64,000 nt of DNA from Terriglobia bacterium (GCA_963555775.3 CAUVWY020000001.1:69534-133533); one strand, 5' to 3'; numbered from the stretch's first letter, positions 10,460 through 57,526 are shown. The notes: generated from the letters alone by a model not told the origin. Made by a program: numbers and translations.

Positions 10460-10844
10460 GCGGCAGGACGCGCGGCGGGCGCCACGCGACGGCCGTCATC
10501 GGATATTGGCGAGGCCGCGCCCGTTACCCTGCGTGGCTATCGCCCGCAGGTAACGTAGAGGGTTTGCCGGCAGATGCCAATGCCGAACTCGCGGACCGCG
10601 CGAACCGCAAGACATTCGGCCGCGCCCTCCCTGTTGGTCTTACAGGCAAGCTTTTTTGTCGATGGGTGGAATGTTGTAGTCGTGTTGTTCGGTATAGAAT
10701 CTTGTTGGCCCCTTAATTTGTCTCGCATTTCGGGGAGCACTTTCACTCTCGGGTGGTCGATTTTTCGGCCAAACCTGCTCCAAGAGGAGGCAGCGATCGG
10801 TATCAAGCGGGTAGGCAATAACCGTGACAGGCAGGCGGGCAAGG

Positions 10845-11285
10845 ATGATGGATATCGTCGACAGCCAGCGGCGAAGCGAGATGATGGCCGGCATCAAGGG
10901 ACGCGATACAACGCCCGAGATCGTTGTCCGTCGAATCGCGCACGGCTTGGGTTTCCGTTTTCGTCTGTACCGCAAGGATCTTCCCGGTCGTCCCGACATA
11001 TCGTTTCCACGGCACCGGGTCGTTGTCTTCGTGCATGGCTGTTTCTGGCACAGGCACGATGGATGCAGATACGCGTACACCCCGAAAACCAGGGTTCGGT
11101 TCTGGACCGAAAAGTTCAGCCAGAACGTCGCCAGAGACCGTCGAAATGACGAATTGCTGCACAACCTCGGCTGGCGTGTCCACGTCATTTGGGAGTGCGA
11201 AACGCGGGACAAGACCGCTGTGAAAGAACGTCTTCTGGATTGCCTTCCCAGGGATGCTGCGGCGGCGAGCGAGTCATCCACATGA
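10845..11285 (+). CDS. vsr: Very short patch repair endonuclease
   Basis: 'RSEMMAGIKGRDTTPEIVVRR...GRPDISFPRHRVVVFVHGCFWHRH' is the Vsr signature. Start chosen at ATG 10845. The stop overlaps the dcm start (ATGA). Confidence 0.85.
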   Translation: MMDIVDSQRRSEMMAGIKGRDTTPEIVVRRIAHGLGFRFRLYRKDLPGRPDISFPRHRVVVFVHGCFWHRHDGCRYAYTPKTRVRFWTEKFSQNVARDRRNDELLHNLGWRVHVIWECETRDKTAVKERLLDCLPRDAAAASESST

Positions 11286-12235
11286 TACGAGGATGCGACA
11301 TCTTCTGCGGTGCCGGCGGCAGCAGCGTCGGAGCACGGGCGGCAGGAATTGAGATGGTTGCCGGTATCGACATGTGCGCAACGGCAACGGCAACGTACGC
11401 GGCTAACTTCCCTGACGCATACGTTGTGACCAACCGATTGGAAGATATCTCCATAGACGACTTCAAGGAGCAGGCGGGGTCAATCGACATTCTGCTGGCA
11501 TCGCCGGAGTGCCGGAATCATACCTGCGCCAAAGGCTCCGCGCCCAGGGATGAATCCAGCCGGGCAACCGCGATGCATGTGATTGAATATGCCCGCGTGC
11601 TGGCGCCGAGGTGGCTTGTTCTCGAAAACGTCATCTATATGCGCCCGTGGTCGCGGTATGCAGAACTGAAACACAGGCTCCAGACACTCGGATATCACCT
11701 TGACGAACGAATTTTTGACGCTTCCGATTTTGGCGTCGCGCAGAAGCGGAGGCGGTTGTTTCTGGTCGGGGATCGCGAAGGCCCGCCCAATTTGAAGCTG
11801 AGGAAATGCCCTGGGGGACGCAAATCAGCCGAGTCCATTCTCGATCCCTCCGGGACATGGAAGACATCGCCCCTGGACAAGGAGAACCGAGCCAAGGCCA
11901 CGCTTGAGAGGGCACGACGCGGATTCGAAGCTCTTGGCCACGAAGCCAGTTTCCTGCTGGTTTATTACGGCAGCGACGGAAGTGGTGGCTGGCAGCCCCT
12001 CAATCGCCCTCTTCGCACCATTACCACGGTCGACCGATTCGCGCTCGTTGAGCACGACGGGAACAGGTCGAGGATGCGCATGTTGCAGGTACCGGAACTC
12101 AAACGAGCCATGGGTTTCAGCGACGACTTCGAATTGCCGACGGGTACGCGCCGCGACCGAATCCGACTTCTCGGAAACGGGGTTTGCCCACCTGTGATGG
12201 AAAACGTTGTGCGATCTTTGGTGTCCGTTACCTGA
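11282..12235 (+). CDS. dcm: DNA (cytosine-5)-methyltransferase
   Basis: Motif I 'DIFCGAGG', motif VI 'LENV', motif VIII 'QKRRRLF', motif X 'GNGVCPPV'. Motif IV reads 'SPECRNHT' rather than the canonical PCQ. Confidence 0.85.
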   Translation: MIRGCDIFCGAGGSSVGARAAGIEMVAGIDMCATATATYAANFPDAYVVTNRLEDISIDDFKEQAGSIDILLASPECRNHTCAKGSAPRDESSRATAMHVIEYARVLAPRWLVLENVIYMRPWSRYAELKHRLQTLGYHLDERIFDASDFGVAQKRRRLFLVGDREGPPNLKLRKCPGGRKSAESILDPSGTWKTSPLDKENRAKATLERARRGFEALGHEASFLLVYYGSDGSGGWQPLNRPLRTITTVDRFALVEHDGNRSRMRMLQVPELKRAMGFSDDFELPTGTRRDRIRLLGNGVCPPVMENVVRSLVSVT

Positions 12236-12286: not shown

Positions 12287-13570
12287 TCAGAACGAAATCT
12301 TGCCTGGCCGCGCACCGTAGCTGTGAATCTGATAAATGAGATCGTTGAGTATCTGCTCGCGAAGCCGGTAGATAGGGACAGCGTTTTGTGCGTCGGCCGA
12401 AGGTTTCGAAATCGGAAAACGAGCGCTGACACGTAACATCCGAACCTCGCCATACCACTCAAACGCCGGACTGGTCCATACCGCGGGAGACGGTTTTTTG
12501 CTCCTGTTCCTTTTGATTTCTGGAAAGTCCAGACCAAGAAAACAGGGCACTGGTCCAGGTTGCCTCTGAGCGTGGTCGCACGCAGCCTGGGCCTGCACAA
12601 GGACCCAGCGAAAGCGCTCGTCGTCGGGCGCGAAATCCTTGCATCGAAACTCGTTTGGCGCGGCGTCTCTCTCCGCAACGCCGAAAGCATTTTCGAAGTC
12701 TTCCCGATCCGTTGTCGGCAACGGGATGACGCAACCGCGCTCCGATCCCTCCAAACTTCCTGGATCTGCAATGTGAACCATCCGGTTGAGCTTGGCCGCT
12801 AATGCCGGGGAGAGCCGTTGCGTACCGGTAATCGTAAAGGCGGCCCGCCAGACATGGTCGTCACTCTCGCCGGAGCGCAGGTTGCCGATCCGATCCGCCA
12901 GAATCGGTAACAGTGCTTCGTTCACGGCCCGAAAGCGGTCGACGTCCACGTGATCCTGGCCAACCGCTTCGATCGCGAGTCTCGCAAGAATTCTCCCGAT
13001 CTCTTCCGCCTGCTTGTCTGCCTTCTCTGTCGAAACCAACTCCAATATTGAAGACACGGTGCTTCCGGTCGCTTTGACCATACGGCTCTCCCAATCGAAC
13101 AGAGCGCCGATTTGCGGTAACTTCTCAGTGATACCGATTATCGCCTTCATGAGCGCTTCTTCATCCTTGACAGTACCGTTGCTGTCCAGGTGGTCGGCCT
13201 TCGCCAGGGGGAGAACATCTAACGGTCCCGGTACACCTTTGAGACGCTCAAGAAAATGTCGGATTTCAGTTGCCTGATCCGGGTACTGGGTCCACAACAC
13301 GATGAAATACGGGCCGGACGGCTTGATGGTGCGCTCCAGAAGTCCACCGATCGTGCTGAAGTCCGTCGTATGATCGGGTGTCAGAGTACCGCCGCCGAGG
13401 TGAAGGTCGGCGAAGATGACCCGGACATCGGGGCATGGCTTGATGTTGGCTGTGTCGCCGGTGAAGTGAATCCGAAGGCATGCCACGCCGTGCCGGTTCA
13501 GGCTGTTCGCTAAACCGGCCAGATGTTCGCTCTGGTCGTCGATAGCTATGACTTTCGGTGAGGTGAACAT
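12287..13570 (-). CDS. Receiver (REC) domain protein with an unassigned ~300-aa C-terminal domain
   Basis: All canonical receiver positions are readable: 'IAIDD', 'VIFADLHL', 'IVLWTQ', 'LPLAKAD'. The remaining sequence has no motif I recognise. The ATG at 13570 overlaps the upstream stop (TGATG). Confidence 0.7.
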   Translation of the reverse strand: MFTSPKVIAIDDQSEHLAGLANSLNRHGVACLRIHFTGDTANIKPCPDVRVIFADLHLGGGTLTPDHTTDFSTIGGLLERTIKPSGPYFIVLWTQYPDQATEIRHFLERLKGVPGPLDVLPLAKADHLDSNGTVKDEEALMKAIIGITEKLPQIGALFDWESRMVKATGSTVSSILELVSTEKADKQAEEIGRILARLAIEAVGQDHVDVDRFRAVNEALLPILADRIGNLRSGESDDHVWRAAFTITGTQRLSPALAAKLNRMVHIADPGSLEGSERGCVIPLPTTDREDFENAFGVAERDAAPNEFRCKDFAPDDERFRWVLVQAQAACDHAQRQPGPVPCFLGLDFPEIKRNRSKKPSPAVWTSPAFEWYGEVRMLRVSARFPISKPSADAQNAVPIYRLREQILNDLIYQIHSYGARPGKISF

Positions 13571-15714
13571 CACTTGCCCGCCTTGAAGATCATGGCGACG
13601 ACGGCGCCATCGTACTCAACCGGGATATCGACTTCATCACGATCTGGAAATACGAGTTGGCCGCCGTTCAATTCCATCGCCAAATTCGCGTAGTATAGTC
13701 CGAGGCCCATCCCGTCAGGCTTGCGTGTAAAGAACGGGCGCACGAGATGTCCGGGAGCATCCCCTTGGAAGCCTGCCCCATTGTCCGCGACGACAATGGC
13801 CGGTCCTTTCTCGAAATCGTCCGACGTTCCCACAAAAAGACGCCGTTCGGAAGTCACGCCATCTTCCGACAACACCGGCCATCTGACCCGCATCCAGTAG
13901 AGCGAGTTGTCGATCAGGTTGTTCAGTGCCCCCAACACCAGTCCGAATGAAAAGCTGGACTCGAAACCGACGACGCCCTTTAGCAATGGGGAGGCAAATT
14001 GGATTTGGTGGTGGCGAAAACGCAGAAGATTGAACTGACGCGCCCGTTCGACGAGTTGGCGTGCGCTATGCTGTTTCTTGCTGTCTCGGCGCAATAGTGT
14101 GGAAAAGCCGTCAAGAACTCTCGTGAGTTCCTGTGCTTGATTGGCCGCGCCCTTGATGTCTCGGCCTTGGACGATAACCTGATGCAACGCTCGGACCCCT
14201 CTCTCCACCTCATGAAATACGACAGCAAGGTTTAGGCCGGACATCCCAGCCGCAAGCAGCGTCTCCTGCATGTTTACGTAATCCTGCTCGATCTTCGCCA
14301 CATAGGGTTCGAAGGTCTCCGAAACATCATGCTTTGCGAGTTCTCGCCTCAGTTGCTGAATGGGTTTCTCGATACGCGACACGGTTGGGTCACTCGGCTT
14401 TTCCGTTAGCCGCCTGATTCGCTCCTTGTCGAACTGCCGTTCCTCCTCAAGCGCTCCAAGCGCCCCTAACACAATCTTCCGCAGTCGATCGCACGCGTCG
14501 TTCTCAACGAAACCTTCCCGGTTGGTCTTCTCTAAGAGTCGGCCCGACGATTCCAAAGACAGATGTACCGCTCCCAGAACGATGTTCCGGCTGATTCGGC
14601 GAGTCGGGATGTTCACGCGCCGGAGATCGAGGCCAAGCCAGTCATCACCACTTTCTCCGTAGTTGTAAACCCGAATGCCGTCACGGTAGACGCGAATCCC
14701 ACCGTTTTCATCGAGATAGCTGGTCAACAAACGGGTATCGCCCAGTCGTCGAAGCACTTCCCTGTCACGGTCAAACACGTGAAACTCGCCAGAGATGGGA
14801 CCGATGCCCCGTGTCGTCGTCTCATCGGCAACAACCTTTTTATCCATTCGTCTACTACCCGAGTCTGGCGGGAGCTTCAGCCTGTCACCGCTTCGCGACA
14901 CCGTCCTTGGGTCAAGCTTGAATCCGGGAACCTGTCTGAACTCATACGTATAGTAAAATCGTCCCTCTTCCAGTCGGAAAGCGAATTTCCAGATCGCTCG
15001 ATCAACTATTTCTGCAAAGTCGGGCAGGTCTTCGATCCAACCCTCGTTTCCCGGAACCTGCAAAGTTGCCTGGAATTCCCCAGGTCCCTCGAATGGCGAG
15101 CAGATCGACGTAATCTGAGCGTGAAGACGCCGGACATCCCTTCGAGACCAAACCGGTGGACGCAATTCGCGGATCTCGATCCGCGTGCCAGTTTTCTCTT
15201 CGGTGAATACTTCCGCGGGACGAACGCGAATCCTGACTGGCGCTTCGTCCAAGTACGGTTTGTCAATCAGTTCGTTCCAATCGATATCCACGACACATTC
15301 ATTGGAGTCGCGCGCACGCGTGGTCAAACGGATGCGGTTTCCAAGTTTGTGAACGGCGAATCGCCCAAGCCCCTTTTCTCCAAGGGGGAGTCGATGATGT
15401 ATGGGGGAACGCTCACTATTTTCCCGTTGCTTCCGGCGGTGATCGTCCCCCGGGACAAGCCAGACCGACCGCAGCAGGTCCAGCGACATACCCTCGCCGT
15501 CGTCGGTCACTGTAATCGAGGGTTCCTCCTCCGGAGCCAAGTCGATCTGAACGACAGCTTCATTGGCATCGGCGTCGTAGGCGTTCTTGACCAATTCAAA
15601 GACCGCCAGGCGCGGACTCCCGATCAATTCATCGCCAAGCAACTGCAACACTCTGGCCCGGGGCCGGAACGGCTGGTTGATTTCTCTTGGCGTCACTGGG
15701 TCACGCTCGTTCAT
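13570..15714 (-). CDS. Dual-GHKL protein: N-terminal MORC/MutL/Hsp90-like ATPase fused to a histidine-kinase-like C-terminus
   Basis: N-terminal set: 'ELVKNAYDAD', 'DDGEGM', 'GEKGLGRF'. C-terminal set: 'VVFHEVERGV' (H-box-like), 'LNNLIDNSLYW', 'VADNGAGF', 'GMGLGLYYA'. No TM segments. ATGA overlap with the upstream gene. Confidence 0.75.
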   Translation of the reverse strand: MNERDPVTPREINQPFRPRARVLQLLGDELIGSPRLAVFELVKNAYDADANEAVVQIDLAPEEEPSITVTDDGEGMSLDLLRSVWLVPGDDHRRKQRENSERSPIHHRLPLGEKGLGRFAVHKLGNRIRLTTRARDSNECVVDIDWNELIDKPYLDEAPVRIRVRPAEVFTEEKTGTRIEIRELRPPVWSRRDVRRLHAQITSICSPFEGPGEFQATLQVPGNEGWIEDLPDFAEIVDRAIWKFAFRLEEGRFYYTYEFRQVPGFKLDPRTVSRSGDRLKLPPDSGSRRMDKKVVADETTTRGIGPISGEFHVFDRDREVLRRLGDTRLLTSYLDENGGIRVYRDGIRVYNYGESGDDWLGLDLRRVNIPTRRISRNIVLGAVHLSLESSGRLLEKTNREGFVENDACDRLRKIVLGALGALEEERQFDKERIRRLTEKPSDPTVSRIEKPIQQLRRELAKHDVSETFEPYVAKIEQDYVNMQETLLAAGMSGLNLAVVFHEVERGVRALHQVIVQGRDIKGAANQAQELTRVLDGFSTLLRRDSKKQHSARQLVERARQFNLLRFRHHQIQFASPLLKGVVGFESSFSFGLVLGALNNLIDNSLYWMRVRWPVLSEDGVTSERRLFVGTSDDFEKGPAIVVADNGAGFQGDAPGHLVRPFFTRKPDGMGLGLYYANLAMELNGGQLVFPDRDEVDIPVEYDGAVVAMIFKAGK

Positions 15715-16493
15715 CCGTGATTTTCCCCAAGCACTTCGATCAGTTCAGCGACCACCCGAAGCTCGCCTTCGTCCTCGCCGGTCAGGACGATGGGCTCGAA
15801 AGCGGGGTTGTTTGGTTTCAGGGTGATGCGGGTGTGGCGCCAAGCGCCGTCTGGAATGGCAGGCTCCATGGACTTGCCGACGACCTGGGCGACGAACATG
15901 CCCGGGCGCAAATGGTGGCGCGTGTCGATGGCGGCCCATTCGAAGTCATCCGTTTCGTCGATAGTTTGCGGGTCGCCGAAGGCGCCGGCTGCGGCCTGGA
16001 ACGGGATGAGCGGAACGCAGGTGACGTATCGGTCCGCTGGTTCCGTCTCGACAATGCGCGGGCGGAACGGAACGATCTCGGCCATCGCGCGTTTGGCCTT
16101 GTCGTAAACGCGGCATTCGATCTGACCGCTGCTCAGAGCTTCGAGAACGGCTGGCACTCCGTGCAGGAAGGGATTGTCCTGCTTTTCGGACTCGATGCTC
16201 CGATCAAGGGCTTCTGGTGCCCTGGCGCGTACGGAGTCGAGCAGCGCCTTGCGCGTGCGGTGAGTTGTTTCGGCACCCATCAGCACGCGGATCTTCTTGA
16301 GGCCTTGCCATTTTCCGTCCAGCGCAAGCAACGCGCCGATCTCGAAAAATCCCGTCGCGACATCGAAGGCACTGGCGATCCCCGCCCATTCTTCCAGGTA
16401 GGGCAGCCCGGTCCAGCCAGAGACGCTGTTGTCGACGATAAAGAGGCCGCGACCTCTGGATTCAGCGCTCACTCGGTCCTCCCGGCTGAGCAC
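15711..16493 (-). CDS. Chimeric mini-protein: PLD-like N-terminal segment joined to a partial S24/LexA-like peptidase C-terminus
   Basis: 'AFDVATGFFEIGALLALDGKWQGLKKIRVLMG' resembles the N-terminus of large PLD-helicase proteins, but no HxK motif follows. The C-terminal 'AAGAFGD...FVAQVVGKSMEPAIPDGAW' is an S24 Ser-box with the Lys region missing. Start is ambiguous (GTG 16493 or GTG 16472). Confidence 0.5.
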   Translation of the reverse strand: MLSREDRVSAESRGRGLFIVDNSVSGWTGLPYLEEWAGIASAFDVATGFFEIGALLALDGKWQGLKKIRVLMGAETTHRTRKALLDSVRARAPEALDRSIESEKQDNPFLHGVPAVLEALSSGQIECRVYDKAKRAMAEIVPFRPRIVETEPADRYVTCVPLIPFQAAAGAFGDPQTIDETDDFEWAAIDTRHHLRPGMFVAQVVGKSMEPAIPDGAWRHTRITLKPNNPAFEPIVLTGEDEGELRVVAELIEVLGENHG

Positions 16494-16707
16494 GACCGTT
16501 TCGCTTTGTCATTGGCCGGTTGGCTCCAGCAGCCCGGGTTTTTACCTCGATCCAGGAATCGATAGCCGTTCGAAGGAACCGCCACTGACCGCCGACCTTG
16601 AAGGCGGGCAGGTCGCCCTTCTGGACAAGACCGTACACCGTCTTCTCTGCCACCTTGAGGAGGTGAGCCACATCGGAGATGGTGAGGATGTCGTCTTGGC
16701 TTGTCAT
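16462..16707 (-). CDS. Excisionase/MerR-like helix-turn-helix DNA-binding protein
   Basis: 'LTISDVAHLLKVAEKTVYGLVQKGDLPAFKVGGQWRFLRTAIDSWI' is the HTH_17/Xis-type signature. It is the first gene of the minus-strand operon. Confidence 0.7.
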   Translation of the reverse strand: MTSQDDILTISDVAHLLKVAEKTVYGLVQKGDLPAFKVGGQWRFLRTAIDSWIEVKTRAAGANRPMTKRNGRAQPGGPSER

Positions 16708-16782
16708 AGCTACCCATCCGGGAAAACTTCGGGTAAATCTACCAGAACTTTCCAAAATAAGTTAAATGTCGGAAGAACTGAT

Positions 16783-45131: not shown

Positions 45132-46025
45132 TTGCCGAAGCAACTCGCTATGCCAAAGAAAATTTCTAACGCGCTCGTAAATATAGATCTGGGAGAATTG
45201 TCGAAGCCCGCGAACACTTTGATCGAGAAGATATCGGATGCGGGCGTCGGTCTCTTTGCACCTTGGCAGATCAAGAGAGTCGCAAAGGCCGAGGCAGCGG
45301 CAGCGGCAGCGGCAGCGATGATAAGGGCAGAATCTGAAATTCAGATAACCGACCTGCAAAGACGAGCCGTGCATCGACTGGTTGAGGAGGAATCTCAGTA
45401 CCAGAAGAACATGGAAGGCGTTACCGCCAAAGCGTTGCCGCAGTTGAACGAAAATGCGGACCCCGATTCCATCGAGAACGATTGGATCGTCAACTTCTTC
45501 CAGAAATCCCGGATCGTGTCTGACAATGAGATGCAGGATCTCTGGTCCCGAATCCTGGCTGGCGAGGCGAACGCTCCCGGGACCTATTCGAAGAGGACCG
45601 TCAATTTCCTTTCGGATCTCGATAAGACCGAAGCCGAACTGTTCACAAAACTCTGTGGATTCATTTGGAATATAGGAGAGTTAAAGCCGTTAGTGTTCAA
45701 TTTCGAGGCGGAGATCTACAACAGACACGGAATTAATTTCGACAGCCTAATTCACCTTGACAGTATTGGTCTTATTCAATTCAACGGAGCGACAGACTTC
45801 TTAACGACAAATCTCCCAAAGAGATTCGTCGTGCATTACTATGGTAGGCCGCTTACCTTGGAGATGCCCAAAGATGCTGGCAACAATCTCTCCATTGGCA
45901 AGACGCTGCTTACACGCGTCGGGAAGGAACTTGCAGTGATAAGCGGAAGCAAGCCGGTGCAGGGATTCTGGGAGTATGTGAAGGACCAATGGAATCAGTA
46001 CTTGCCGAAGCCGAAGACGGAATAG
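45132..46025 (+). CDS. DUF2806 domain protein
   Basis: 'DWIVNFFQKSRIVSDNEMQDLWSRILAGEANAPGTYSKRTVNFLSDLDKTEAELFTKLCGF' matches my recollection of DUF2806. Visibly lower GC than the flanks. Confidence 0.65.
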   Translation: MPKQLAMPKKISNALVNIDLGELSKPANTLIEKISDAGVGLFAPWQIKRVAKAEAAAAAAAAMIRAESEIQITDLQRRAVHRLVEEESQYQKNMEGVTAKALPQLNENADPDSIENDWIVNFFQKSRIVSDNEMQDLWSRILAGEANAPGTYSKRTVNFLSDLDKTEAELFTKLCGFIWNIGELKPLVFNFEAEIYNRHGINFDSLIHLDSIGLIQFNGATDFLTTNLPKRFVVHYYGRPLTLEMPKDAGNNLSIGKTLLTRVGKELAVISGSKPVQGFWEYVKDQWNQYLPKPKTE

Positions 46026-46088
46026 GAGGTGCGTCCGAGCCGCTCTTTTCAATGCGGTATAGAAACTGACGATGTCTTCCGGGTCGGC

Positions 46089-46332
46089 ATGTCGGCGAAA
46101 GACAATTCCGGAGACAACGCTTTCGTCGAATCGTTCTTCAAGACCCTAAAGTATGAGGAGGTCTCTCTGGAATTACGACACTTCCGAGGACCTGATCGAA
46201 CGCGTCCCGTACTTCATCGAGGAGATTTATAATCGCAAGCGGCTGCACTCCTCGATCGGCTATCGTCCGCCGATCGAGTTCGAGCAGTTCGGTAACTTGA
46301 AACGCGCCGATCAGCCTATTTTCAATCTATGA
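46089..46332 (+). pseudogene. IS3-family transposase (OrfB/rve) C-terminal remnant with a frameshift
   Basis: 'DNAFVESFFKTLKYEEV' in one frame continues as 'WNYDTSEDLIERVPYFIEEIYNRKRLHSSIGYRPPIEFE' in another. No upstream catalytic core. Confidence 0.75.
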
Positions 46333-46386
46333 TGGAATCTGTCCAGTTTTGGGAGTCCACTCCAATCGATCGCCAGTAATCTTGTT

Positions 46387-47229
46387 CTAATCCGAGAGAT
46401 TCTGGCCGTTTAGAGTTGGATTAACCTGAGTGAACCCAAAGACCGCCCAAGGCGCGTTTTCTGGATCGTTGTGTGCGGCCCGCGAAACGAAGATCAGAAA
46501 GTGCCGGTCTTCATGTTCGAAGAACTGGAAGTTCCTTGTCCTAAGTAAGCCCTCGCTGAGAACCAGCGCGTTGTTCTCATCCAATACAGAGAAACCGTTG
46601 TAACTGTCAGTGAATTGGGTAGTTCGGATCTTATAGGGGTAGATCGGACTCAAGTCTTCTTCCGACCCTGCGGTCAACTCTCCTGTAAATCGTATACCTC
46701 TTCCTGGACTCATCTCCATCCCGTCGAAAAGCCCCAATCGACCGAGCGACAATAGATCGATCTTCCCTAAGTCATGTTCTTGCTCTGTTACTCTGATCGT
46801 TCCAGACTCAAGCTCGGCGTCCCAGTCCACATCGTTCAAGAATGTAGACACGTCTTGGCTATACGTCTCCCCGCCGATCGTGACTGCGCTCGGTGTGCCG
46901 TTCCTATCGATCGCAACCCAGGACGAGGGAGCCGGATCAATGATCGGATTCTGTTCCACAAGTCTGTTATTCAAAAACCATGTCAAAAATACAAACACGG
47001 CAACACTTCCACTAGCCTTAAACGTCGCCAACTTCAAAGTGCTTCCTTCGATACCGCCCAAAAAACGATACAGGAAAGCCGTCGCCGTCAGGCCCATGCA
47101 AAATGCCGTGACTATAGGGCTACCATCCGCAGAATATGAGGCGGCCGCGCTAAGGAAAAACACGCCGGTCAAGACGAGCATAATGACCGTCTCAGTATCC
47201 AGTTTTCGACCCTTTCGTTGATTCGACAT
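46387..47229 (-). CDS. Hypothetical membrane protein (3 predicted N-terminal TM segments plus a soluble domain)
   Basis: 280-aa ORF with hydrophobic stretches in the first ~95 residues. Low GC. No family recognised. Confidence 0.5.
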   Translation of the reverse strand: MSNQRKGRKLDTETVIMLVLTGVFFLSAAASYSADGSPIVTAFCMGLTATAFLYRFLGGIEGSTLKLATFKASGSVAVFVFLTWFLNNRLVEQNPIIDPAPSSWVAIDRNGTPSAVTIGGETYSQDVSTFLNDVDWDAELESGTIRVTEQEHDLGKIDLLSLGRLGLFDGMEMSPGRGIRFTGELTAGSEEDLSPIYPYKIRTTQFTDSYNGFSVLDENNALVLSEGLLRTRNFQFFEHEDRHFLIFVSRAAHNDPENAPWAVFGFTQVNPTLNGQNLSD

Positions 47230-47309
47230 GGTTGCCTCCGTCTATCTCCAATGTCCGGAAGGTCCGAAATCGAGCGCGGCAGAAACACGTATCCGCGCCA
47301 CTCTCGTCC

Positions 47310-47804
47310 TTAGTTGGCTGCGGTCCTGCGCGTTATCTCTTTAGCCAAGCGCATCCGGAGTCTGGAAACTCTCGTCCGGACGCCGCCTGCGGAGACGCCT
47401 TGGCTGGCGGCTATTTCGTGATAAGTGGTTCCCGCTGCTACGGCGTTAAGAAGCGCCCACTCTGCTGCGCTGACAGCACTACGGATCTCTGCGAGACTGA
47501 TGCGCGCCAGCATGCGCTGTTCTTCTAGGCACTCAGGATCTTGACTGAGGAATTCGCGGCGCAGCCTAGCGCGGTTTCGCTCCAGACGGGAGCCGGTGGC
47601 AATCGCCCTGTCTATGCTGTTCTGGAACTCTTGTGGATCAATTGTGACGCTGGGTTCGAGAGCGATCAGAAAGTTGTTTAGACCGTTCTCGATGCCCCAA
47701 AACCCGTCTGTTAAACGACCGCAACGGGCGGCCTTCGATTGATAATTTTGGGGATTACATCTAATAGTGACGTAATCCAATCTTTGCGGGTCGTACCACA
47801 TCAA
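47310..47804 (-). CDS. Hypothetical protein with a C-terminal sigma-70 region-4 / LuxR-like HTH
   Basis: 'AEWALLNAVAAGTTYHEIAASQGVSAGGVRTRVSRLRMRLAKE' has an HTH pattern. The N-terminal 100 aa are unassigned. Confidence 0.5.
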   Translation of the reverse strand: MMWYDPQRLDYVTIRCNPQNYQSKAARCGRLTDGFWGIENGLNNFLIALEPSVTIDPQEFQNSIDRAIATGSRLERNRARLRREFLSQDPECLEEQRMLARISLAEIRSAVSAAEWALLNAVAAGTTYHEIAASQGVSAGGVRTRVSRLRMRLAKEITRRTAAN

Positions 47805-48085
47805 CCATGAGGTAAGCCACCGGTGGAGATTTTATCAGAGACTCTCTTATTCCGAATTGCAGCCGTGCTTTTAAGCCGGTTGCGGAAACGGAATGAGGGA
47901 CAGAATTCGTCGGGACGGGTTGATTTTCCATGATCATTCCTCACTGTTCTGGCGATAGGCGGGTGAGGGTGCTACCTCGCCCGCCATACATATTATAGTG
48001 ATAAAAACAGGCAATGAATTGTTAAAAACACCTTGCAAACTACGTCACTACCCTGTAATATTGTATTGTAAGTAGGAGATACGCA

Positions 48086-49042
48086 ATGGCTAACAAGGCA
48101 CCTGGCAAACACTTCCGACAGGGACTTTCAACTAAGGAATTCTACCGCCTGTTCCCCGACAACGCATCCGCTGAAGAATGGTTCATCCAGAACCGCTGGT
48201 TCGACGGCATCACCTGCCCGCGTTGTGGATCGGACAACGTGCAGACTGGAACGGCCCACAAGACCATGCCGTTTCGGTGCCGCAAGAGCAAGAAGCGTGA
48301 AACCTGCGGGAAACCGTTCAGCGTCAAGACCGGGACGTTCATGGAAGCATCCAACCTCGGCTATCAGGATTGGCTCTACGCCATGTATCTGGTCGTTACC
48401 AACCTGAAGAGCGTGGCATCCATGAAGATGCACCGCGAGTTGGGAATCACCCAGAAATCCGCATGGCATCTTGTTCACAGAATCCGCAAGGTTTGGGACG
48501 TTTCTGATCATGAACCATTCAAAGGTCCTGTTGAGGCGGATGAGGTCTACATCGGCGGACTGGAAAAGAACAAGCACCAGTCCAAGAAGTTGAAGTCCGG
48601 TCGTGGATCGGTTGGAAAAACCGCTGTTGTAGGTGTCAAGGATCGTGACACGAACGAGGTCCGAGCTACAGTGGTCGAGCGCACAAATGCAGAAACCCTT
48701 CAAGGTTTCGTTCGTGCCAATACAGACCCCGAATCAACGGTTTACACTGACGAAGCAACCGCATATCAAGGCGTTGCCAAGTCGCATGAATCGGTCAAGC
48801 ACTCGGTTGGTGAGTACGTCCGGGGTCAGGCCCACACCAACGGCATTGAATCCTTTTGGTCCATGCTGAAACGCGCTCACAAGGGGACGTTCCACAAGCT
48901 GTCAGCCAAACACCTTCACCGCTACGTCTGCGAGTTCGCAGGACGCCACAACATCCGCAGCATGGGCACTCTCGATCAAATGCGTTTCGTCGTTTTGAGC
49001 ATGGATGGGGCACAACTTCGTTACAAGGACTTGGTAGCGTGA
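48086..49042 (+). CDS. IS1595-family transposase
   Basis: N-terminal zinc ribbon 'CPRCGS....CRKSKKRETCGKPFS' and a DDE_Tnp_IS1595-like core ('EVYIGG...DE...Y....H..V.H...EYVRG..HTN.IESFWS.LKR'). Element ends not determined. Confidence 0.85.
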   Translation: MANKAPGKHFRQGLSTKEFYRLFPDNASAEEWFIQNRWFDGITCPRCGSDNVQTGTAHKTMPFRCRKSKKRETCGKPFSVKTGTFMEASNLGYQDWLYAMYLVVTNLKSVASMKMHRELGITQKSAWHLVHRIRKVWDVSDHEPFKGPVEADEVYIGGLEKNKHQSKKLKSGRGSVGKTAVVGVKDRDTNEVRATVVERTNAETLQGFVRANTDPESTVYTDEATAYQGVAKSHESVKHSVGEYVRGQAHTNGIESFWSMLKRAHKGTFHKLSAKHLHRYVCEFAGRHNIRSMGTLDQMRFVVLSMDGAQLRYKDLVA

Positions 49043-51869: not shown

Positions 51870-52008
51870 CCCTATCAATCCTCGCCTCCCACCCGCGTGC
51901 CTGTTCTTCCAGTTCACGCTTCCGGGGAGGCTATCAGGGGTGGGTCCCTTTTCCTCGATCAGAGCCCCGTTTGGTGGGTCCCTTTTACGTTATCGAAATC
52001 ACACCGAT

Positions 52009-53103
52009 GACCATCCGCGTCTCATGGAAGCGATTGAAAGTGCCCGTTACGCCCACTCGGATGGCATGGGTGCGTTTATGTGTTTCATGGCCGTCCGTTT
52101 GTTGGAGATGAGGCGTGTTCTGAAGTCAACCGGATCGATCTACCTGCACTGCGACCCAACTGCTTCACATTATTTGAAGGCGGTCATGGACGCGGTATTT
52201 GGGTGGAAAAAGTTTCGTAACGAGGTGGTGTGGGGGTATAGGACTGGCGGTGTGGGCAAGCGTTGGTTCGCAAGAAAACACGATGTGATTCTTTGCTACT
52301 CCAAGTCAACTTTCTGGACATTTAATGTCCAGCATTACCGTTCTTACCAGCAGAAAAAGTACAACTACAACAAGAAGTACCCCGAACTATGGGACAAGGA
52401 AAAGAAGAAGTGGTACCACAATTCAGTTTGCAGGGATGTATGGGAGGATATCAAATCTATAGGAACCGAAAAAGGCCAGAAAGAGGTTACTGGCTATGCA
52501 ACCCAAAAACCATTAGCCCTGTACGAACGTATCATCAAGGCATCCAGCAATGAAGATGACACGGTATTGGACCCGTTCTGCGGTTGTGCCACAACCTGCG
52601 TTGCCGCTGAAAAGCTAAATCGTCAGTGGGTAGGCATCGACATATGGGATAACGCGAGGGATGTTGTTTTGAAAAGGCTTGAATTGGAAGGATTGATCGT
52701 GCAGGACTCAACCGACAAACTACACGGTCATCTGTTCCCATATGACGTAATCAAGATGGATGTCCCGCCGATTCGCACGGATGACACCAAAACAGCCGCA
52801 CCTAACCTCAGAACCAAAGTCATCGTCTTCGAACCAGTAGGGAAGAAGATGACCCGTGCAGATATGTATACCCATCTTCTGGACCAACACGGCCGCAAGT
52901 GCCGTGGTTGTGAAAGAACGTTCGATGATTCTCGTTACCTCCAGTTGGACCATAACACTCCACGGGCTGATGGTGGATTGAACCACATATCCAACCGGGT
53001 CTTGTTATGTGGTCCATGCAACCAACTCAAGAGTCACATTTACACGTTGTCGGGCTTAAGACGTGAGAACAAGAAACGAGGGTTCATGCGTAATGGAAAT
53101 TAG
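52009..53103 (+). pseudogene. Amino-methyltransferase-HNH fusion gene, 3' part
   Basis: 'MRRVLKSTGSIYLHCDP' and motif I 'LDPFCGCATTCVAAEKLNRQWVGIDI'. C-terminal HNH 'CRGCERTF......LQLDHNTPRADGGLNHISNRVLLCGPCNQLKS'. In frame with 49129-49356 once the IS and one TSD copy are removed. Confidence 0.8.
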
Positions 53104-53281
53104 CTGCCAACCTCGGCCCAAGGATTGGACGTGCGCCTGTAAACATGAGGACATACCTGTAGGTTGGGGCTCCGGTGGGTTCCAGTGCGACGTATGTAAT
53201 GGCATTTACTACGCTCCTATCAACCCGTCCGACAGCGATCTTTTCGACAGCTTTGCCATAATGAGGAGTGAGAATGACTAA
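53093..53281 (+). CDS. Small Cys-rich hypothetical protein (62 aa)
   Basis: ATG 53093 overlaps the MTase-HNH 3' end by 11 nt. 'CACKH...CDVCNG' suggests a Zn-ribbon-like motif. No family recognised. Confidence 0.35.
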   Translation: MEISCQPRPKDWTCACKHEDIPVGWGSGGFQCDVCNGIYYAPINPSDSDLFDSFAIMRSEND

Positions 53282-53471
53282 GACTCCGAAACCAAAAACA
53301 GTTGAGATAGTGAAGTCCGACTACCAGCCGACCAAGGGCGAGTTGGAGCAGGAATTGGAACCTCTCGACATTCCTGGACCGACCGTGGATCAGCGCATCA
53401 AGAATCTGGCGCGGGCGTTGTTTCAGCCGGTCAAGTTGCGCAGGATCGACCTGCCACGGAAACGACGCTGA
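53274..53471 (+). CDS. Small hypothetical protein (65 aa)
   Basis: SD 'aggag' lies 5 nt before ATG 53274. It overlaps the preceding small ORF by 8 nt. Charged and lysine-rich. Confidence 0.35.
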   Translation: MTKTPKPKTVEIVKSDYQPTKGELEQELEPLDIPGPTVDQRIKNLARALFQPVKLRRIDLPRKRR

Positions 53472-53765
53472 TTCATAATGCGTCACTATTCGATATAATC
53501 CCCTTAATTTTCGTAAATCCACCAAGGAATTGGCTGATCGGACATTGTTCATCTCCTTCTGTGGGGATCGAAGCGATGTCGTCCCCGCGATGACCACGGT
53601 GCAGATCAGACGCCCCATCGGGTTGCCGAACTCCGAACCGGAAACGCTATGCCCGGATGCGAAGCCTGTGCCGGCCGCCGATGGAGAGCCATCTCGACGC
53701 CAGTGCATTATACAAAACTTACGAAGCGGACCCAAGCGCGACCGGCTGGGCCCGCCAGAAAACAC

Positions 53766-55661
53766 TCAAGCGGATGATCCTAATTGCGTTCCGTAGGTAT
53801 CGGACCACTCCTTTCGGAAAAGATCGAATGTCTGCTTCCGATCCGGGTCCTGCAGCGCCATCGAGCTTTGCGCTCGCGCAAGCGACAAGAGCATGAGTTG
53901 AAGCGCCACCAAAGCCTCTTGGGCACCCTTGAAAGTCTGCGGTTCGGCAGCAGTGTCTTCTTCAACTTGGGGCGCACCCTCGGCGACTATGGCATCCAAA
54001 GCCAAAGCTGCTTTGCTCAGTGGTTCGTAAAGGCGTTCGTAAAAGGGATGCGCCGTGTTAATCGTCAGGATGATCCTCCCGAACCGTTGATCCACGTGAT
54101 AGAACGGCCAGTATTCATCATGCTTGTAGTGCATGATGTGCTTTGAGGTTTTGATACGATCGAATGCCTCCTCGTCGGTTTCATTCTCGCGTTTGAGCAG
54201 CATCGCCAGTGTGCGAAGATTTTCATCGAACTGGTGTTGCTCCTCCGGAGTCGTCGGCGCGGGTTCCACAAGGGGCTTGGCCTGCAGCCGCTCAGCCTCG
54301 TCTGCCTTCATTTCGCCGGCGCTTGGTTTGCTGCCGTTGCGTATGACCGTCTGTGCGCGCTGATGCTTTTTGATCTGATCGCGAAGCGTAGCGATTTCGC
54401 CATCCAACAAGCGAGAAATTTCCCGCAAGACGTAGTCTTTAGGGCGGATGCCCTGTTTATTTGCGGCGACACCGAAGGCCTCGTCCAATTCGCCCGGAAA
54501 GTCAATCTGAATGCGGAACCAATTAGCGTCGCTGTGGCGTCTCATTAATTGCGGGATGGTTCCGACAAAAACTTCCCGGTCGTTGCGCAGGACCGAGATC
54601 GTGTTGTCGTCATACAGGTGCAGGTCATTTTTGCGTATCTTCATCGGCAGCGATCCCCAATCCTCGATCGGGAGGGCGTAGAGGCGCACCGTGACGGGCG
54701 CAGTCTCGATATCTTCCGGATCCTGCCGGTAGTTTTCGCTGCGCTTCACTTGGGTGACCTTGGAAAAAACCAACCGGCTTTCCTTCACCGTGATCTCGGC
54801 GATTCTTGTATGTCGGGCGGCAGCCATGGAATAAGTGGGGTCGAACGGTTCCACTAGACGATTGTTGACGTAAAGCTTTGTGCCTTTTGCCAAAGCCCGG
54901 CGATAGACGCGGGACATTTCTTTGATGGCGTGTTCGCACAGGGTCCGCGCTTTTGCGTAGGTAAGCCGGTCGCAGCCGGGCAAATAGACGATCGTGCCCG
55001 ACTTCCCGAGTCGATCCCATAGACCGTCGGCATTTTGTGACAACAGCGTCTGCTCGTCTCGATTCGGGAACGAGAGTGGTTTCGTCAGGGTATCCGAGAC
55101 TTCGCTTGGCAGTTGATCCATCAGGGTTGGGACCGGCAGTTCAACAAGGTTTGATTTTTCCTTTCCGATCGCCTCGACGTCGAGAGTGATGTTGTAATAG
55201 GCTCCCGGCTCCTGCCAAGAGTAAAGGTCCAGGACTGGACACATGCTGAGCGCCGCGGTTTTCATACCCATTCCATAACGCCCGATGCCCGAGCGGTTGT
55301 CGAAAACCATGGAGCCGCCGAACGACGTAGCAAATCTGAGGATATTTGGCGACATGCCGCTCCCGTTATCGAGCACTAGAATATCGGTCTCATAACCACC
55401 TCTCTTGCCACTCTGGCGAAAGTACACTCGAATCTCGGTTGCGCCCCACTGGATAGCGTTGTCAACATGCTCGCAAAGCGCCGACGTGGTGGTGTTATAA
55501 CCCACGTCCCGCAAAGAACTGATCAGTGTTTGACCAAAAAAGAGAGGGACTGTCGCCTTTTCCTTGATGATCCGGTTCAGTACCGTTCTGCCCCCACGCG
55601 GGGCATCGTCACCCCATTCTGGGCTTTGAAAATCAACTTCCTGAGTAATTTGTTCTCGCAT
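53766..55661 (-). CDS. MORC-like GHKL ATPase (HATPase_c_3-type)
   Basis: N-box 'CEHVDNAIQWGA', G1 'LDNGSGM', G2 'GRYGMGMKTA'. Start placed at ATG 55661, preceded by 'aaggag' with a 6-nt spacer. The ORF-track start at 55730 abuts the IS end. Confidence 0.8.
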   Translation of the reverse strand: MREQITQEVDFQSPEWGDDAPRGGRTVLNRIIKEKATVPLFFGQTLISSLRDVGYNTTTSALCEHVDNAIQWGATEIRVYFRQSGKRGGYETDILVLDNGSGMSPNILRFATSFGGSMVFDNRSGIGRYGMGMKTAALSMCPVLDLYSWQEPGAYYNITLDVEAIGKEKSNLVELPVPTLMDQLPSEVSDTLTKPLSFPNRDEQTLLSQNADGLWDRLGKSGTIVYLPGCDRLTYAKARTLCEHAIKEMSRVYRRALAKGTKLYVNNRLVEPFDPTYSMAAARHTRIAEITVKESRLVFSKVTQVKRSENYRQDPEDIETAPVTVRLYALPIEDWGSLPMKIRKNDLHLYDDNTISVLRNDREVFVGTIPQLMRRHSDANWFRIQIDFPGELDEAFGVAANKQGIRPKDYVLREISRLLDGEIATLRDQIKKHQRAQTVIRNGSKPSAGEMKADEAERLQAKPLVEPAPTTPEEQHQFDENLRTLAMLLKRENETDEEAFDRIKTSKHIMHYKHDEYWPFYHVDQRFGRIILTINTAHPFYERLYEPLSKAALALDAIVAEGAPQVEEDTAAEPQTFKGAQEALVALQLMLLSLARAQSSMALQDPDRKQTFDLFRKEWSDTYGTQLGSSA

Positions 55662-55729
55662 CTCGTTCTCCTTAGTTTTGTGACCGCCGGCTATTCGGTG
55701 TCTGAGTCGAGAGAGCATATTGGCTCTCA

Positions 55730-57526
55730 CTAATTAGTGTCCGCCAGAAAACCCCTCTCGCGGATGGAGATTTGGGAGCGACCGGGGGTGCAAGTGACGT
55801 TCATTCACTATAAATCGAACCGCAACGGGAGCGGTTGACGACTCGTGGGGAGTGATCGGCAAGAAATCGGCCCGAATGTCGGGCGTCCGGGCATGGGGCG
55901 GCTTGCCGTCTTGCGACGGCCCCGAATCGGGCATGTTCCGGGAGGACCGGTGGGTCAGGCGACGCGTGGTCGTTTGCGCTCGCGCTTCTGCAGGATCGAT
56001 CCGATGCGATGCAGGTTGGCGGCCAGTACCGACAGGGCGACGGCGCGGGCGAAGCCGTCGGCGCCGTGAGTGCGGACACGGTTGAGCCCTCGATGCTCCA
56101 ATCCATTGATGGCCGATTCAATCGCAGGATGCGCGCGCCGCGCGGCGGCGAAGGATTCCTCCGCTTCGCGTTCCCGGTCGACTCGGGACCGATACCCCTT
56201 TCCCGGCAGCGCGTTGAGGTCGAGGAGCGCGTCGAGATTGATCCGGTTCTCAGGACTGTGAAAGCCCCGGTCGAAGCTGCACGCCCGCAGATCGGGATAC
56301 CGCGCCTGGGTTTCCCTGACCATCGGCGCCGCCACGTCCACGTCCTCGCCCTCCCACAGGATCCGGTGGTGCAGGATGAATTGATGCTGGTCCTCGATGA
56401 GAGCGACCGGCACTCCCAGTTCCACCGGCGTGCCCGCCTTGCCCTTCGAAATCCAGCGCGTGTGCTCCTGGAAGATCGAGAACACCTTCTCCGCGTGAGG
56501 AATCGTCTCGCCTCGCAGGAGCCGGCGTTCAACCTGGCCGATTTGGCGCCGGGCATGAGCGATAAAGCCTTCGATTGATTGACAGGTGGTTTCCTCGACG
56601 CCGTTGTCCCGCAGCTCGTCGAGGGTCTCCGCGATCCGGGCGACCAGTGCGCGGCAGCGCTCCAGGTACGCCTCCACCCGCTCCGGACGGCGCTTCGCCC
56701 GCCGGGTCGAGCGCACCGTGTTGAACAGCTTCCTGACCTTCCTGGATAGATGCCGCCACTGACGCCATCCGCCCACGGCGTGTTGCCCGGCCACCTCCCC
56801 AGTCTCCCGTAGCACGCACCGCATCGCGTCCCACAACAGGCTTACATCCGTCGGGTAATGCACGTCCGTTTCGACCACGAACGAGTCACACCGCCCGCGC
56901 AATGGCTCGCCAGGCTTTTTTTTCGGGCGACCTTGTGGCCACTCTCCACCACCAGTTGTCCGACCGCCGACAACAACTCCGGCGTCAACAACGACACGTT
57001 GTCGACCACCGTCTGGTACTCGTAGCGCGTCTTGTCGACGAAATCGCCGTGACCCAGGAACGCGCGTATCGTCGCGTGATGGTTCGCCAGGTCGTGAAGG
57101 CGGTCGAAGTCGCAGCCCAGACCCTGCTTCAGAACCCCCAGCACCAGGATCTGCCACAATTCCATCCCCGGACGCCCGACCGTGCGGTCGGCCTCCGGCA
57201 GAATATGCTCATCCAGCAGCGCAAACAGCCGGACGCGCAGCGCCTCCTCGCCCCAGATCTGCTGCAGCCCCTTCAATACCGCCGGGATGTCGTCCCGCGA
57301 CTTCGGGTCGATCCAGATCTGCTCGATCGGCGCCTGACCGATCTGGAACTGCCGTCTCTGCACTTCTCTCATCGTGTCCCCGCTTCGCGAAGATTCTCCA
57401 TTCAGCGGTCAAAACCCAGAACTTCACCCCCAATAATACGACATCTGAACGATCTTCACCACTCGAAGTCCACTATATGTACTGCATTATCAACTAGTTA
57501 TGAGTTTTCTGGCGGACACTAATTAG
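55730..57526 (-). mobile_element. IS5/IS1182-superfamily insertion sequence (~1.8 kb)
   Basis: Perfect 23-bp terminal inverted repeats 'ctaattagtgtccgccagaaaac' at 55730-55752 and 57504-57526. The outer CTAATTAG is itself palindromic, so part of it could be target duplication. Confidence 0.85.
55955..57372 (-). CDS. DDE transposase in two overlapping frames joined at an A8 run
   Basis: The N-terminal frame (57372-56842) has the InsH/DUF772-like 'GRPGMELWQILVLGVLKQGLGCDFDRL'. The C-terminal frame (57157-55955) has 'DSFVVETDVHYPTDVSLLWDA' and 'ISKGKAGTPVELG'. The frames differ by -1 at a T8 run on the plus strand, 56916-56923. Confidence 0.75.

Follow-up and report, generated by a model that had tools for sequence, protein, structure and literature searches.

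Background: described systems related to the locus

An adjacent pair of histidine kinase (HK)-like and receiver proteins has been described by Bellieny-Rabelo, Pretorius and Moleleki (2021, Genome Biol Evol 13:evab024; PMC8011034), who named the two families HEF_HK (PF19191) and Response_reg_2 (PF19192). The HK-like proteins of that study are soluble and consist of HATPase_c_3, a HEF_HK DHp domain with a histidine followed by an acidic residue, and HATPase_c; adjacent Response_reg_2 proteins with the residue set DD/D/T/K and no other domain were reported in 91.6% of 644 regions. C5 methylases, Vsr, and type II and type I restriction-modification (R-M) genes were over-represented, and a paraMORC origin was proposed. 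The study is purely computational and speculates on regulation of R-M systems. Here, we analyzed a pair of this kind in a stretch of 64,000 nucleotides of DNA from Terriglobia bacterium (GCA_963555775.3 CAUVWY020000001.1:69534-133533; the whole stretch is called the window hereafter), in which a kinase-like protein of 714 amino acids (aa) and a receiver protein of 427 aa are encoded side by side at positions 12287-15714.

The paraMORC GHKL families, which occur in R-M neighbourhoods with Dcm and Vsr and are without a kinase core or receiver partner, form a second group of relatives (Iyer, Abhiman and Aravind 2008; PMC2292703). One of them, VcSduA (paraMORC3, or GHKL-Shedu), has been validated experimentally, its GHKL ATPase gating a defence nuclease (PMC12137116). 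The window kinase resembles these proteins in its N-terminal GHKL domain with a transducer-like module and in its Dcm/Vsr context, as found in the motifs, the Foldseek fold match, and the gene neighbourhood. The C-terminal or partner effectors of paraMORC families vary (RE-fold nuclease, TIR, and others), whereas the window GHKL domain is joined in one protein to an entire histidine-kinase core, with the effector on a separate receiver protein, a combination that is not among paraMORC1-5. Control would therefore be exerted by phosphotransfer rather than by direct fusion.

Detocs consists of the kinase DtcA, the buffer receiver DtcB, and the receiver-PNP effector DtcC, and is without DNA methylase linkage. 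The window pair would share with it a phosphorelay logic that runs from a kinase to a receiver-fused effector with replaceable effector domains, and differs in having no buffer receiver, no PNP effector, a GHKL sensor, and methylase linkage. The PADLOC and NCBIfam Detocs models match neither protein and no third receiver gene is present at the locus, which leaves Detocs as an analogy only.

Assignment of the pair to the HEF_HK/Response_reg_2 family

The pair lies next to two genes on the opposite strand, and the four genes are as follows.

12287..13570, minus strand, response regulator-like receiver gene, 427 aa from the ATG at 13570 (open reading frame [ORF], alignments, AlphaFold [AF2] model, Foldseek)
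13570..15714, minus strand, HK-like kinase gene, 714 aa (ORF, motifs, Pfam, NCBIfam, AlphaFold, Foldseek)
11279..12235, plus strand, Dcm C5 cytosine DNA methyltransferase, convergent with the pair (Pfam DNA_methylase 1.5e-36; PADLOC DrmMII model 4e-90)
10824..11285, plus strand, Vsr very-short-patch repair endonuclease, overlapping the start of Dcm (Pfam Vsr 3e-30; NCBIfam vsr 143 bits, above the cutoff)

The translations confirmed the ORF positions and the one-base TGATG overlap reported in an initial annotation of the window, which had been made from the sequence alone, and every motif that it quoted is present in the 714-aa and 427-aa products. At the kinase/receiver junction (GGC AAG TGA TG), the TGA stop and the ATG start share one base; with an alternative GTG start, the receiver ORF would span 12287-13573.

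Comparison with the 2021 description revealed the same layout in the window kinase, with H501 followed by E502 and a soluble protein, so that every described feature is found. The receiver protein is of the same kind (D11/D12, D55, T94, and K124) and matches no other family. The adjacency of the two genes and their C5 methylase, Vsr, and R-M neighbours are likewise the same, and the genera Rhizobium and Agrobacterium are common to both; nothing essential differs, the window copy coming from an uncultured lineage. We are highly confident that the window pair is an intact member of the HEF_HK/Response_reg_2 family. The initial annotation had presented it as a distinct two-gene architecture, a claim superseded by PMC8011034. 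What is new relative to the 2021 description is the structural confirmation, a Type ISP-like accessory neighbour with its deletion, and output variants with MbcA and RES.

The Pfam scan gave no PF19191 or PF19192 match for the window proteins, for their Rhizobium and Burkholderia plasmid homologs, or for P0467 (UniRef name 'Response receiver domain-containing protein'); these models were probably absent from the Pfam copy used, or too narrow. In PADLOC-DB 2.0.0 and NCBIfam release 20, no model covers either protein as a named defence system, and only partial GHKL (REase_II/HgiDII-type) and generic HK matches were obtained.

Structure and conservation of the kinase-like protein

In the 714-aa kinase, Pfam placed HATPase_c_3 at residues 35-151 and HATPase_c in two stretches. 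Residues ~600-711 matched the NCBIfam HK models PrsK, RegB, AtoS, FixL, and ZraS, while the N-terminus matched the MutL and HgiDII-type models. The AF2 model of the kinase (predicted local distance difference test [pLDDT] score of 71) was divided into four regions, listed below from the N-terminus together with the candidate phospho-acceptor.

15085-15714, residues ~1-210, MORC/Hsp90-like GHKL domain (model)
14515-15084, residues ~211-400, beta-rich transducer-like middle domain (model)
14089-14499, residues ~406-542, long helices (406-488) and DHp (model)
13570-14076, residues ~547-714, HK catalytic (CA) domain (model)
14212-14214, codon of H501, candidate phospho-acceptor (invariant residue)

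In the model, the DHp helix pair (494-515 and 520-542) precedes the CA domain, and H501 lies early in the first of the two helices. Foldseek analysis of the C-terminal half retrieved the DHp+CA cores of HK853, LvrB, YF1, HprS, and ZraS, and that of the N-terminal half retrieved the ATPase modules of SMCHD1, MORC2/3, and Hsp90/GRP94/TRAP1 over 450-500 columns, with E-values of 1e-8 to 1e-10 for both families of matches. Among 36 homologs with identities of 70-83%, the residues of the N-terminal Bergerat fold (E40, N44, D71, G73, G75, G112, G115, and G117) are invariant, as are H501 and E502 of the H-box, N599, D602, and N603 of the N-box, D644 and G648 of G1, and G668, G670, and G672 of G2. Two complete Bergerat folds, as the initial annotation had read them from the motifs, are therefore supported by Pfam, NCBIfam, Foldseek, and the invariance of both motif sets. 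No transmembrane helix was found in the kinase (maximum 19-residue Kyte-Doolittle mean of 1.34), indicating a soluble protein and agreeing with the earlier prediction. As modelled, the kinase has the plan of a class I histidine kinase whose sensor position is taken by a MORC/paraMORC-type ATPase module. With the required residues and folds in place, the protein may be able to autophosphorylate and to engage in His-Asp phosphotransfer.

The receiver protein and its output domain

The receiver protein has no Pfam, PADLOC, or NCBIfam match. The search yielded over 580 word-indexed homologs and, at 50% identity, 965 clusters, nearly all of ~430 aa and aligned end to end, indicating that the protein is real, far beyond chance. 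Its AF2 model (pLDDT 77) begins with a (beta-alpha)5 domain whose strands end at D11/D12, D55, T94, and K124, and the regions below were distinguished.

13121-13570, residues 1-150, CheY-type receiver domain (model, alignments)
13406-13408, codon of D55, putative phospho-acceptor (invariant)
12767-13120, residues 151-268, helical region of lower model confidence (model)
12287-12766, residues 269-427, alpha/beta C-terminal domain, conserved and well predicted, fold unassigned (model)

The best PDB and BFVD matches of the whole model in Foldseek were response-regulator receivers (FixJ, StyR, PhoB, PmrA, and others), with probabilities of ~0.99, E-values of 1e-2 to 2e-4, and template modelling scores of ~0.55 normalised to the target. 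D11, D55, and K124 are invariant among 37 homologs down to 27% identity, and position 94 is Thr or Ser. The receiver fold with its canonical residues was thus correctly recognised in the initial annotation, and the histidine and the aspartate, whose conservation it had singled out as decisive, are conserved across the homologs, as are both N-boxes.

Beyond the receiver, E161, D226, C331, D332, R402, and R421 are invariant. The remainder of the protein, which the initial annotation had been unable to assign, has no relative in family scans, Foldseek, or a PDB profile search: the Foldseek comparison suggested for this protein matched receivers only and gave no assignment for the output domain, and a profile of residues 150-427 searched against all PDB sequences produced one chance-level match (E = 0.55).

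Two further observations concern this gene. The sole match to the receiver protein in the phage collection is MT838277.1 (H8), a 5.5-kb 'Bacteriophage sp.' record from human faeces with 35% identity over the full length, which is short, unannotated, and putatively viral. In addition, the receiver gene is interrupted by inserts in L016 (11173-13079, ~1.9 kb) and L051 (9300-11986, ~1.4 kb).

A mobile module of kinase, receiver, Dcm, and Vsr genes

To define the conserved unit, we collected 43 loci by a pattern scan with one genome per species, mapped reference proteins onto them, and clustered all ORFs. The loci span at least 12 phylum-level lineages (Binatia, Spirochaetia, Opitutales, Dehalococcoidia, Acidobacteriota, Gemmatimonadota, Gammaproteobacteria, Entotheonella, Nitrospinota, Rhodothermales, Syntrophobacterales, and Bacillota). 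The kinase gene is immediately upstream of the receiver gene in all 43, and a C5 methylase is adjacent in 38 of the 43, bearing out the tie to Vsr-Dcm that had been noticed in the window; most loci have the window-type Dcm gene in convergent orientation immediately after the pair. Upstream of the kinase gene, the 43 loci show no conservation. The conserved core is therefore kinase, receiver, and Dcm, with or without Vsr, and not an operon with the helix-turn-helix (HTH) gene and the mini-protein gene that lie upstream in the window.

Across phyla, identity to the window copy is 63-82% for the kinase and 42-63% for the receiver protein, falling to 52% and 30%, respectively, in the Bacillota locus L050. 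The kinase family is large, the search having returned thousands of proteins. The same four genes also occur on plasmids of Burkholderia glumae, Rhizobium gallicum, and Agrobacterium, where the annotations read simply "ATP-binding protein", "hypothetical protein", vsr, and dcm; the plasmid kinases are 51-54% identical to the window kinase and keep the H-box VFHE(V/I)(E/D)(R/Q)G. There is good support for a horizontally mobile module made up of four genes, those for the kinase, the receiver, and the convergent Dcm and Vsr, and the sequence comparison suggests that the module is transferred horizontally under strong constraint.

Type I R-M genes adjoin the module in 8-13 of the 43 loci, and the other neighbours include AspBHI-type Mrr genes, Phd/VapB and HicB antitoxin genes, and insertion sequence (IS) elements. 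The defence or mobile neighbourhood proposed in the initial annotation holds to the extent that the neighbours are often R-M, toxin-antitoxin, or IS genes; PADLOC finds no named system for the pair. As to the Mrr genes, which adjoin the pair in L009 (845-2020) and L031 (11319-12269), the L009 copy comes with an IS element, which takes the place of the upstream region. AspBHI-type Mrr proteins are 5-methylcytosine (5mC)-dependent type IV restriction enzymes, and their position beside a C5 methylase is odd unless the specificities differ. In L029, a second, shorter HATPase_c_3 protein (491 aa; 13012-14487) follows a co-directional C5 methylase downstream of the pair.

A histidine-kinase core with a receiver domain is also what an ordinary housekeeping two-component regulator would have, lying near Dcm by chance. 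Given the invariant gene order beside C5 methylases across phyla, the patchy phyletic pattern, the plasmid carriage, and the failure to detect a DNA-binding output, we find this explanation hardly credible.

The presence of Vsr raises a different explanation, namely that the pair is a repair accessory whose MutL-like GHKL module aids Vsr in very-short-patch repair of 5mC deamination, the kinase and receiver reporting or coupling this activity. The GHKL module does resemble MutL and MORC, Vsr is present in ~31 of the 43 loci, and a functional interaction in which E. coli MutL stimulates Vsr is cited in PMC2292703. However, the ~12 loci without Vsr keep the pair and a methylase, and the extreme horizontal mobility, the plasmid carriage, and the R-M, toxin-antitoxin, and IS neighbours fit a repair role poorly. 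The RES-toxin variants described below are also hard to reconcile with it, and we consider a repair role very improbable.

Sister loci exchange the receiver output for antitoxin and toxin modules

Analysis of the receiver homologs identified two loci in which the output region has been replaced.

L008 12145-13784, receiver-MbcA/ParS and RES variant
L049 10001-11574, receiver-MbcA/ParS and RES variant

In both, an orthologous kinase (79% identical in L008 and 75% in L049) is followed by a receiver with two Xre_MbcA_ParS_C modules and then by a RES gene. The first ~165 residues of the variant proteins are the window-family receiver (48-61% identical), and the RES-domain toxin gene (1.5e-14) comes directly after the variant receiver protein. 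P0334 and P0386 are further receiver-MbcA proteins. Comparison by hhalign of the output-region profile (residues 150-427) with the receiver-MbcA variants detected no relationship, indicating that the outputs are truly swapped.

The canonical arrangement of MbcTA/ParST is an antitoxin gene with a RES gene behind it. The sister loci share with it the C-terminal toxin-binding modules of MbcA/ParS and the RES gene that follows, and differ in that the N-terminal HTH of the antitoxin is replaced by the receiver of the pair family; the window itself has another output domain and no RES gene. The receiver thus appears to control interchangeable toxic outputs, and of all the data, these variants point most strongly to a toxic output under its control. 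By analogy with them, the unassigned output domain of the window protein probably acts as an effector and not by binding promoters. In the initial annotation, the receiver was proposed to switch on an effector; the variants support this part, and a defence function and phosphotransfer are features that the pair may have.

These variants also bear on the speculation of PMC8011034 that the pair regulates R-M systems. As a regulator, the pair would be a cytoplasmic two-component system that senses the state of DNA or nucleotides and tunes the methylase, Vsr, or R-M genes. Such a role fits the R-M association and the two-component anatomy reported there; the dcm-vsr of R. gallicum, which has its own type II endonuclease, could have the pair as its controller, and the unassigned helical region of the receiver protein (residues 151-268) could bind DNA. 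On the other hand, no HTH or other DNA-binding family was detected in the receiver protein, and most of the 43 loci are without a cognate endonuclease beside Dcm, which leaves little to regulate. The replacement of the output by an antitoxin and a RES toxin further points to killing rather than to a transcriptional output. We regard a regulatory role as unlikely.

Proposed mechanism of methylation-gated signalling

The explanation that we favour, and to which we give slightly better than an even chance as a whole, is that the pair is an intact HEF_HK/Response_reg_2 member in a mobile Dcm/Vsr module that acts as a methylation-gated, phosphotransfer-driven restriction or abortive-infection system. 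For the mechanism taken by itself, in which a restriction or abortive-infection module is gated by methylation and uses His-Asp phosphotransfer as its signal, we put the chance at about even or a little below.

In this mechanism, the MORC/MutL-like GHKL domain with its transducer module would dimerise with ATP and clamp DNA, by analogy with MutL, MORC, and Hsp90-type proteins, to which the fold is similar. Dcm, likely the self-marking partner of the pair, would methylate the host sites and thereby hold the module silent. DNA without the Dcm mark, such as that of a phage, a plasmid, or a host after loss of dcm, would switch the module on. A conformational change would then pass through the long helices to the DHp/CA core, leading to autophosphorylation of H501 and transfer of the phosphoryl group to D55. 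The phosphorylated receiver may free the C-terminal output domain, which would be toxic or degradative; in the sister loci, the MbcA/ParS antitoxin output would release the NAD+-targeting RES toxin. Either restriction or abortive infection would result. Vsr would repair T:G mismatches that arise from 5mC deamination and so limit the mutagenic cost of 5mC. What the data show directly is the domain anatomy, the conservation of residues, the linkage of the genes, the swapping of outputs, and the deletion described below; DNA sensing, methylation gating, phosphotransfer, toxicity, and a role in defence are inferred.

Several observations weigh against this explanation. Unrelated C5 methylases replace the window-type Dcm in L029, L046, and L039, and L025 and L027 have an N6 methylase only; different or N6-only methylases beside the pair disfavour a single fixed recognition site. 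In Rhizobium gallicum, a type II endonuclease of its own is annotated with the adjacent dcm-vsr, so the role of restriction arm need not fall to the pair at that locus. No sequence-recognition domain was identified in the kinase, which leaves methylation sensing unexplained. For the output region (residues 150-427, ~275 aa), Pfam, PADLOC, NCBIfam, and Foldseek against PDB and BFVD detected no nuclease, toxin, or DNA-binding relative, and toxicity of the window output domain is accordingly a guess. The matches to the Xre_MbcA_ParS_C-like modules in the variants are weak (17-24 bits each, against a Pfam cutoff of 24.5). The lower-GC islet noted in the initial annotation is present, but the dip is mild (guanine-plus-cytosine [GC] fraction of 0.55-0.59 over 11-19 kb compared with ~0.61-0.63 in the flanks), and neither an integrase nor a tRNA flank was found in the window (tRNA scan: none). 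Experimental follow-up on the HEF_HK/Response_reg_2 pair was not found in the literature.

A wider proposal, which we put forward tentatively as possible rather than probable, is that the module represents a new class of methylation-gated immunity, in which a MORC-like clamp reads missing 5mC and signals by His-Asp phosphotransfer to swappable receiver-fused killers, the restriction arm being a two-component pathway with an abortive-infection output. If the mechanism described above holds, the module would be the first R-M-type system to couple methylation-based self/non-self discrimination to a phosphorelay and swappable toxic outputs, and the study of MORC/GHKL DNA clamps would meet those of two-component signalling and of toxin-antitoxin systems or abortive infection. 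The module would in addition offer a bacterial model for MORC-type ATPases that read the DNA methylation state. Plasmid carriage in culturable Burkholderia, Rhizobium, and Agrobacterium makes the family directly testable.

Deletion of a Type ISP/IIG-like neighbour upstream of the kinase

On the minus strand, 12.3-16.8 kb of the window is occupied by four overlapping ORFs that encode the HTH protein, a 260-aa protein, the kinase, and the receiver protein. The features upstream of the kinase are listed below.

15711..16493, minus strand, 260-aa chimeric ORF, a deletion scar (BLASTP against the L004 2346-aa fusion and the L003 1319-aa methylase)
16462..16755, minus strand, HTH_17/excisionase-type DNA-binding protein (Pfam HTH_17 1.4e-16; NCBIfam MAD1 79.2 bits against a cutoff of 80)
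16091..16103, minus strand, deletion junction with the 13-bp GACAAGGCCAAAC (DNA alignment of the window, L006, and L005)

The HTH ORF overlaps the 260-aa ORF, and the end of the latter (ATGA) overlaps the kinase start by 4 bases, so that translational coupling to the kinase is kept. A promoter and terminator scan gave a result at or below shuffle expectation and was uninformative.

In the nearest relatives of the window, the region upstream of the kinase encodes a ~1,045-aa protein with PLDc_2, ResIII, and Helicase_C and a ~1,315-aa protein with N6_Mtase/Eco57I, Type_ISP_C, and Peptidase_S24; in L004, helicase and methylase are fused into one 2,346-aa protein. These proteins match PADLOC "HKD+Snf2" (3e-59) and the REBASE-derived "REase_MTase_IIG" (1e-211), identifying the neighbour as a Type ISP/IIG-like R-M enzyme. 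BLASTP analysis indicated that residues 8-134 of the 260-aa ORF are 69% identical to residues 1-127 of the fusion and end one residue before its first HKD motif, and residues 132-260 align to the last 177 residues of the fusion with a 48-residue gap inside the S24 domain. The 260-aa ORF is therefore the in-frame scar of a ~2,000-codon deletion in the PLD-helicase/N6-methylase/S24 gene or genes, and only the first ~127 and last ~130 residues of the Type ISP/IIG-like set are kept in the window, which does not hold the full set. The PLD/S24 mini-protein that the initial annotation had counted as an operon member is this scar, and its annotation should be read accordingly.

Comparison with close relatives revealed the order of events. 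In L005, a conspecific contig, the kinase, receiver, and Dcm are 100% identical to those of the window and the chromosomal flanks are the same, and the methylase gene is still present; it is already split into two ORFs, and the 48-residue gap in S24 is already there, so decay preceded the large deletion. L006 bears the same deletion scar as the window. The 13-mer GACAAGGCCAAAC at the junction also occurs at the right-hand breakpoint in L005 (~4000), and its presence at both breakpoints fits a microhomology-mediated deletion. The PLD-helicase/methylase is present in just 4 of the 43 loci, which makes it an accessory neighbour. The HTH gene was detected by tblastn only in the window and L006; it belongs to the decayed PLD-helicase/methylase unit, as its head, and not to the conserved core, contrary to its earlier placement in the operon of the pair.

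Since the closest relatives have one co-directional overlapping array, the pair could have been a dependent subunit of a system made of HTH, PLD-helicase, and N6-methylase/S24 proteins (Hma/MADS- or Type ISP-like), left without function by the deletion in the window. The near-threshold MAD1 score of the HTH protein and weak helicase matches to HmaA and DrmD agree with this. However, the helicase/methylase unit accompanies so few of the pairs, MADS models other than MAD1 and MAD2 (weak) match nothing, and the pair, Dcm, and Vsr have stayed 100% conserved in the window, L005, L006, and L007 while the upstream unit was frameshifted and then deleted. We consider a leftover subunit improbable and retain the reading of the pair as part of an intact Dcm/Vsr module.

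Variable inserts within or beside the array were observed in L003 (6877-7854), L008 (4963-5958 and 13988-14788), and L001 (195-3829). The kinds of insert are a pentapeptide-repeat protein (between methylase and kinase), DUF932 (between helicase and methylase), and DUF5677 (between receiver gene and Dcm); in L001, an HSP70-like and UvrD-like pair lies upstream.

Other defence systems compared and further features of the window

Membership of three other known systems was also rejected. For MADS/Hma, only the HTH protein comes near a model, that of MAD1, and the kinase and receiver match nothing; the methylase of the relatives scores 20-30 bits on MAD2 against a cutoff of 720. For DISARM class 2, only Dcm matches (DrmMII), and DrmA, DrmB, and DrmE are not in the locus. 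The BbrUII/HgiDII family (NF050001) of type II R-M enzymes with GHKL N-termini resembles the window module in having a GHKL ATPase domain beside a C5 methylase and Vsr; the match is limited to residues 22-189 of the kinase, with 79.3 bits against a cutoff of 550, and the rest of the kinase differs.

Elsewhere in the window, a second low-GC islet (0.49-0.56) at 51940-56556 looks like another paraMORC-type R-M-like module and contains the following genes.

51940-53103, plus strand, N6_N4 DNA methylase fused to an HNH nuclease
53766-55730, minus strand, second HATPase_c_3 GHKL protein, 654 aa (best NCBIfam match MzaB, 54.5 bits against a cutoff of 850)
55801-56556, minus strand, 251-aa ORF without a match in family scans

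A further low-GC stretch (0.51-0.54) was observed at 45132-49042, with three genes.

45132-46025, DUF2806 protein
46387-47229, minus strand, 280-aa ORF without a match in family scans
48086-49042, IS1595-family transposase

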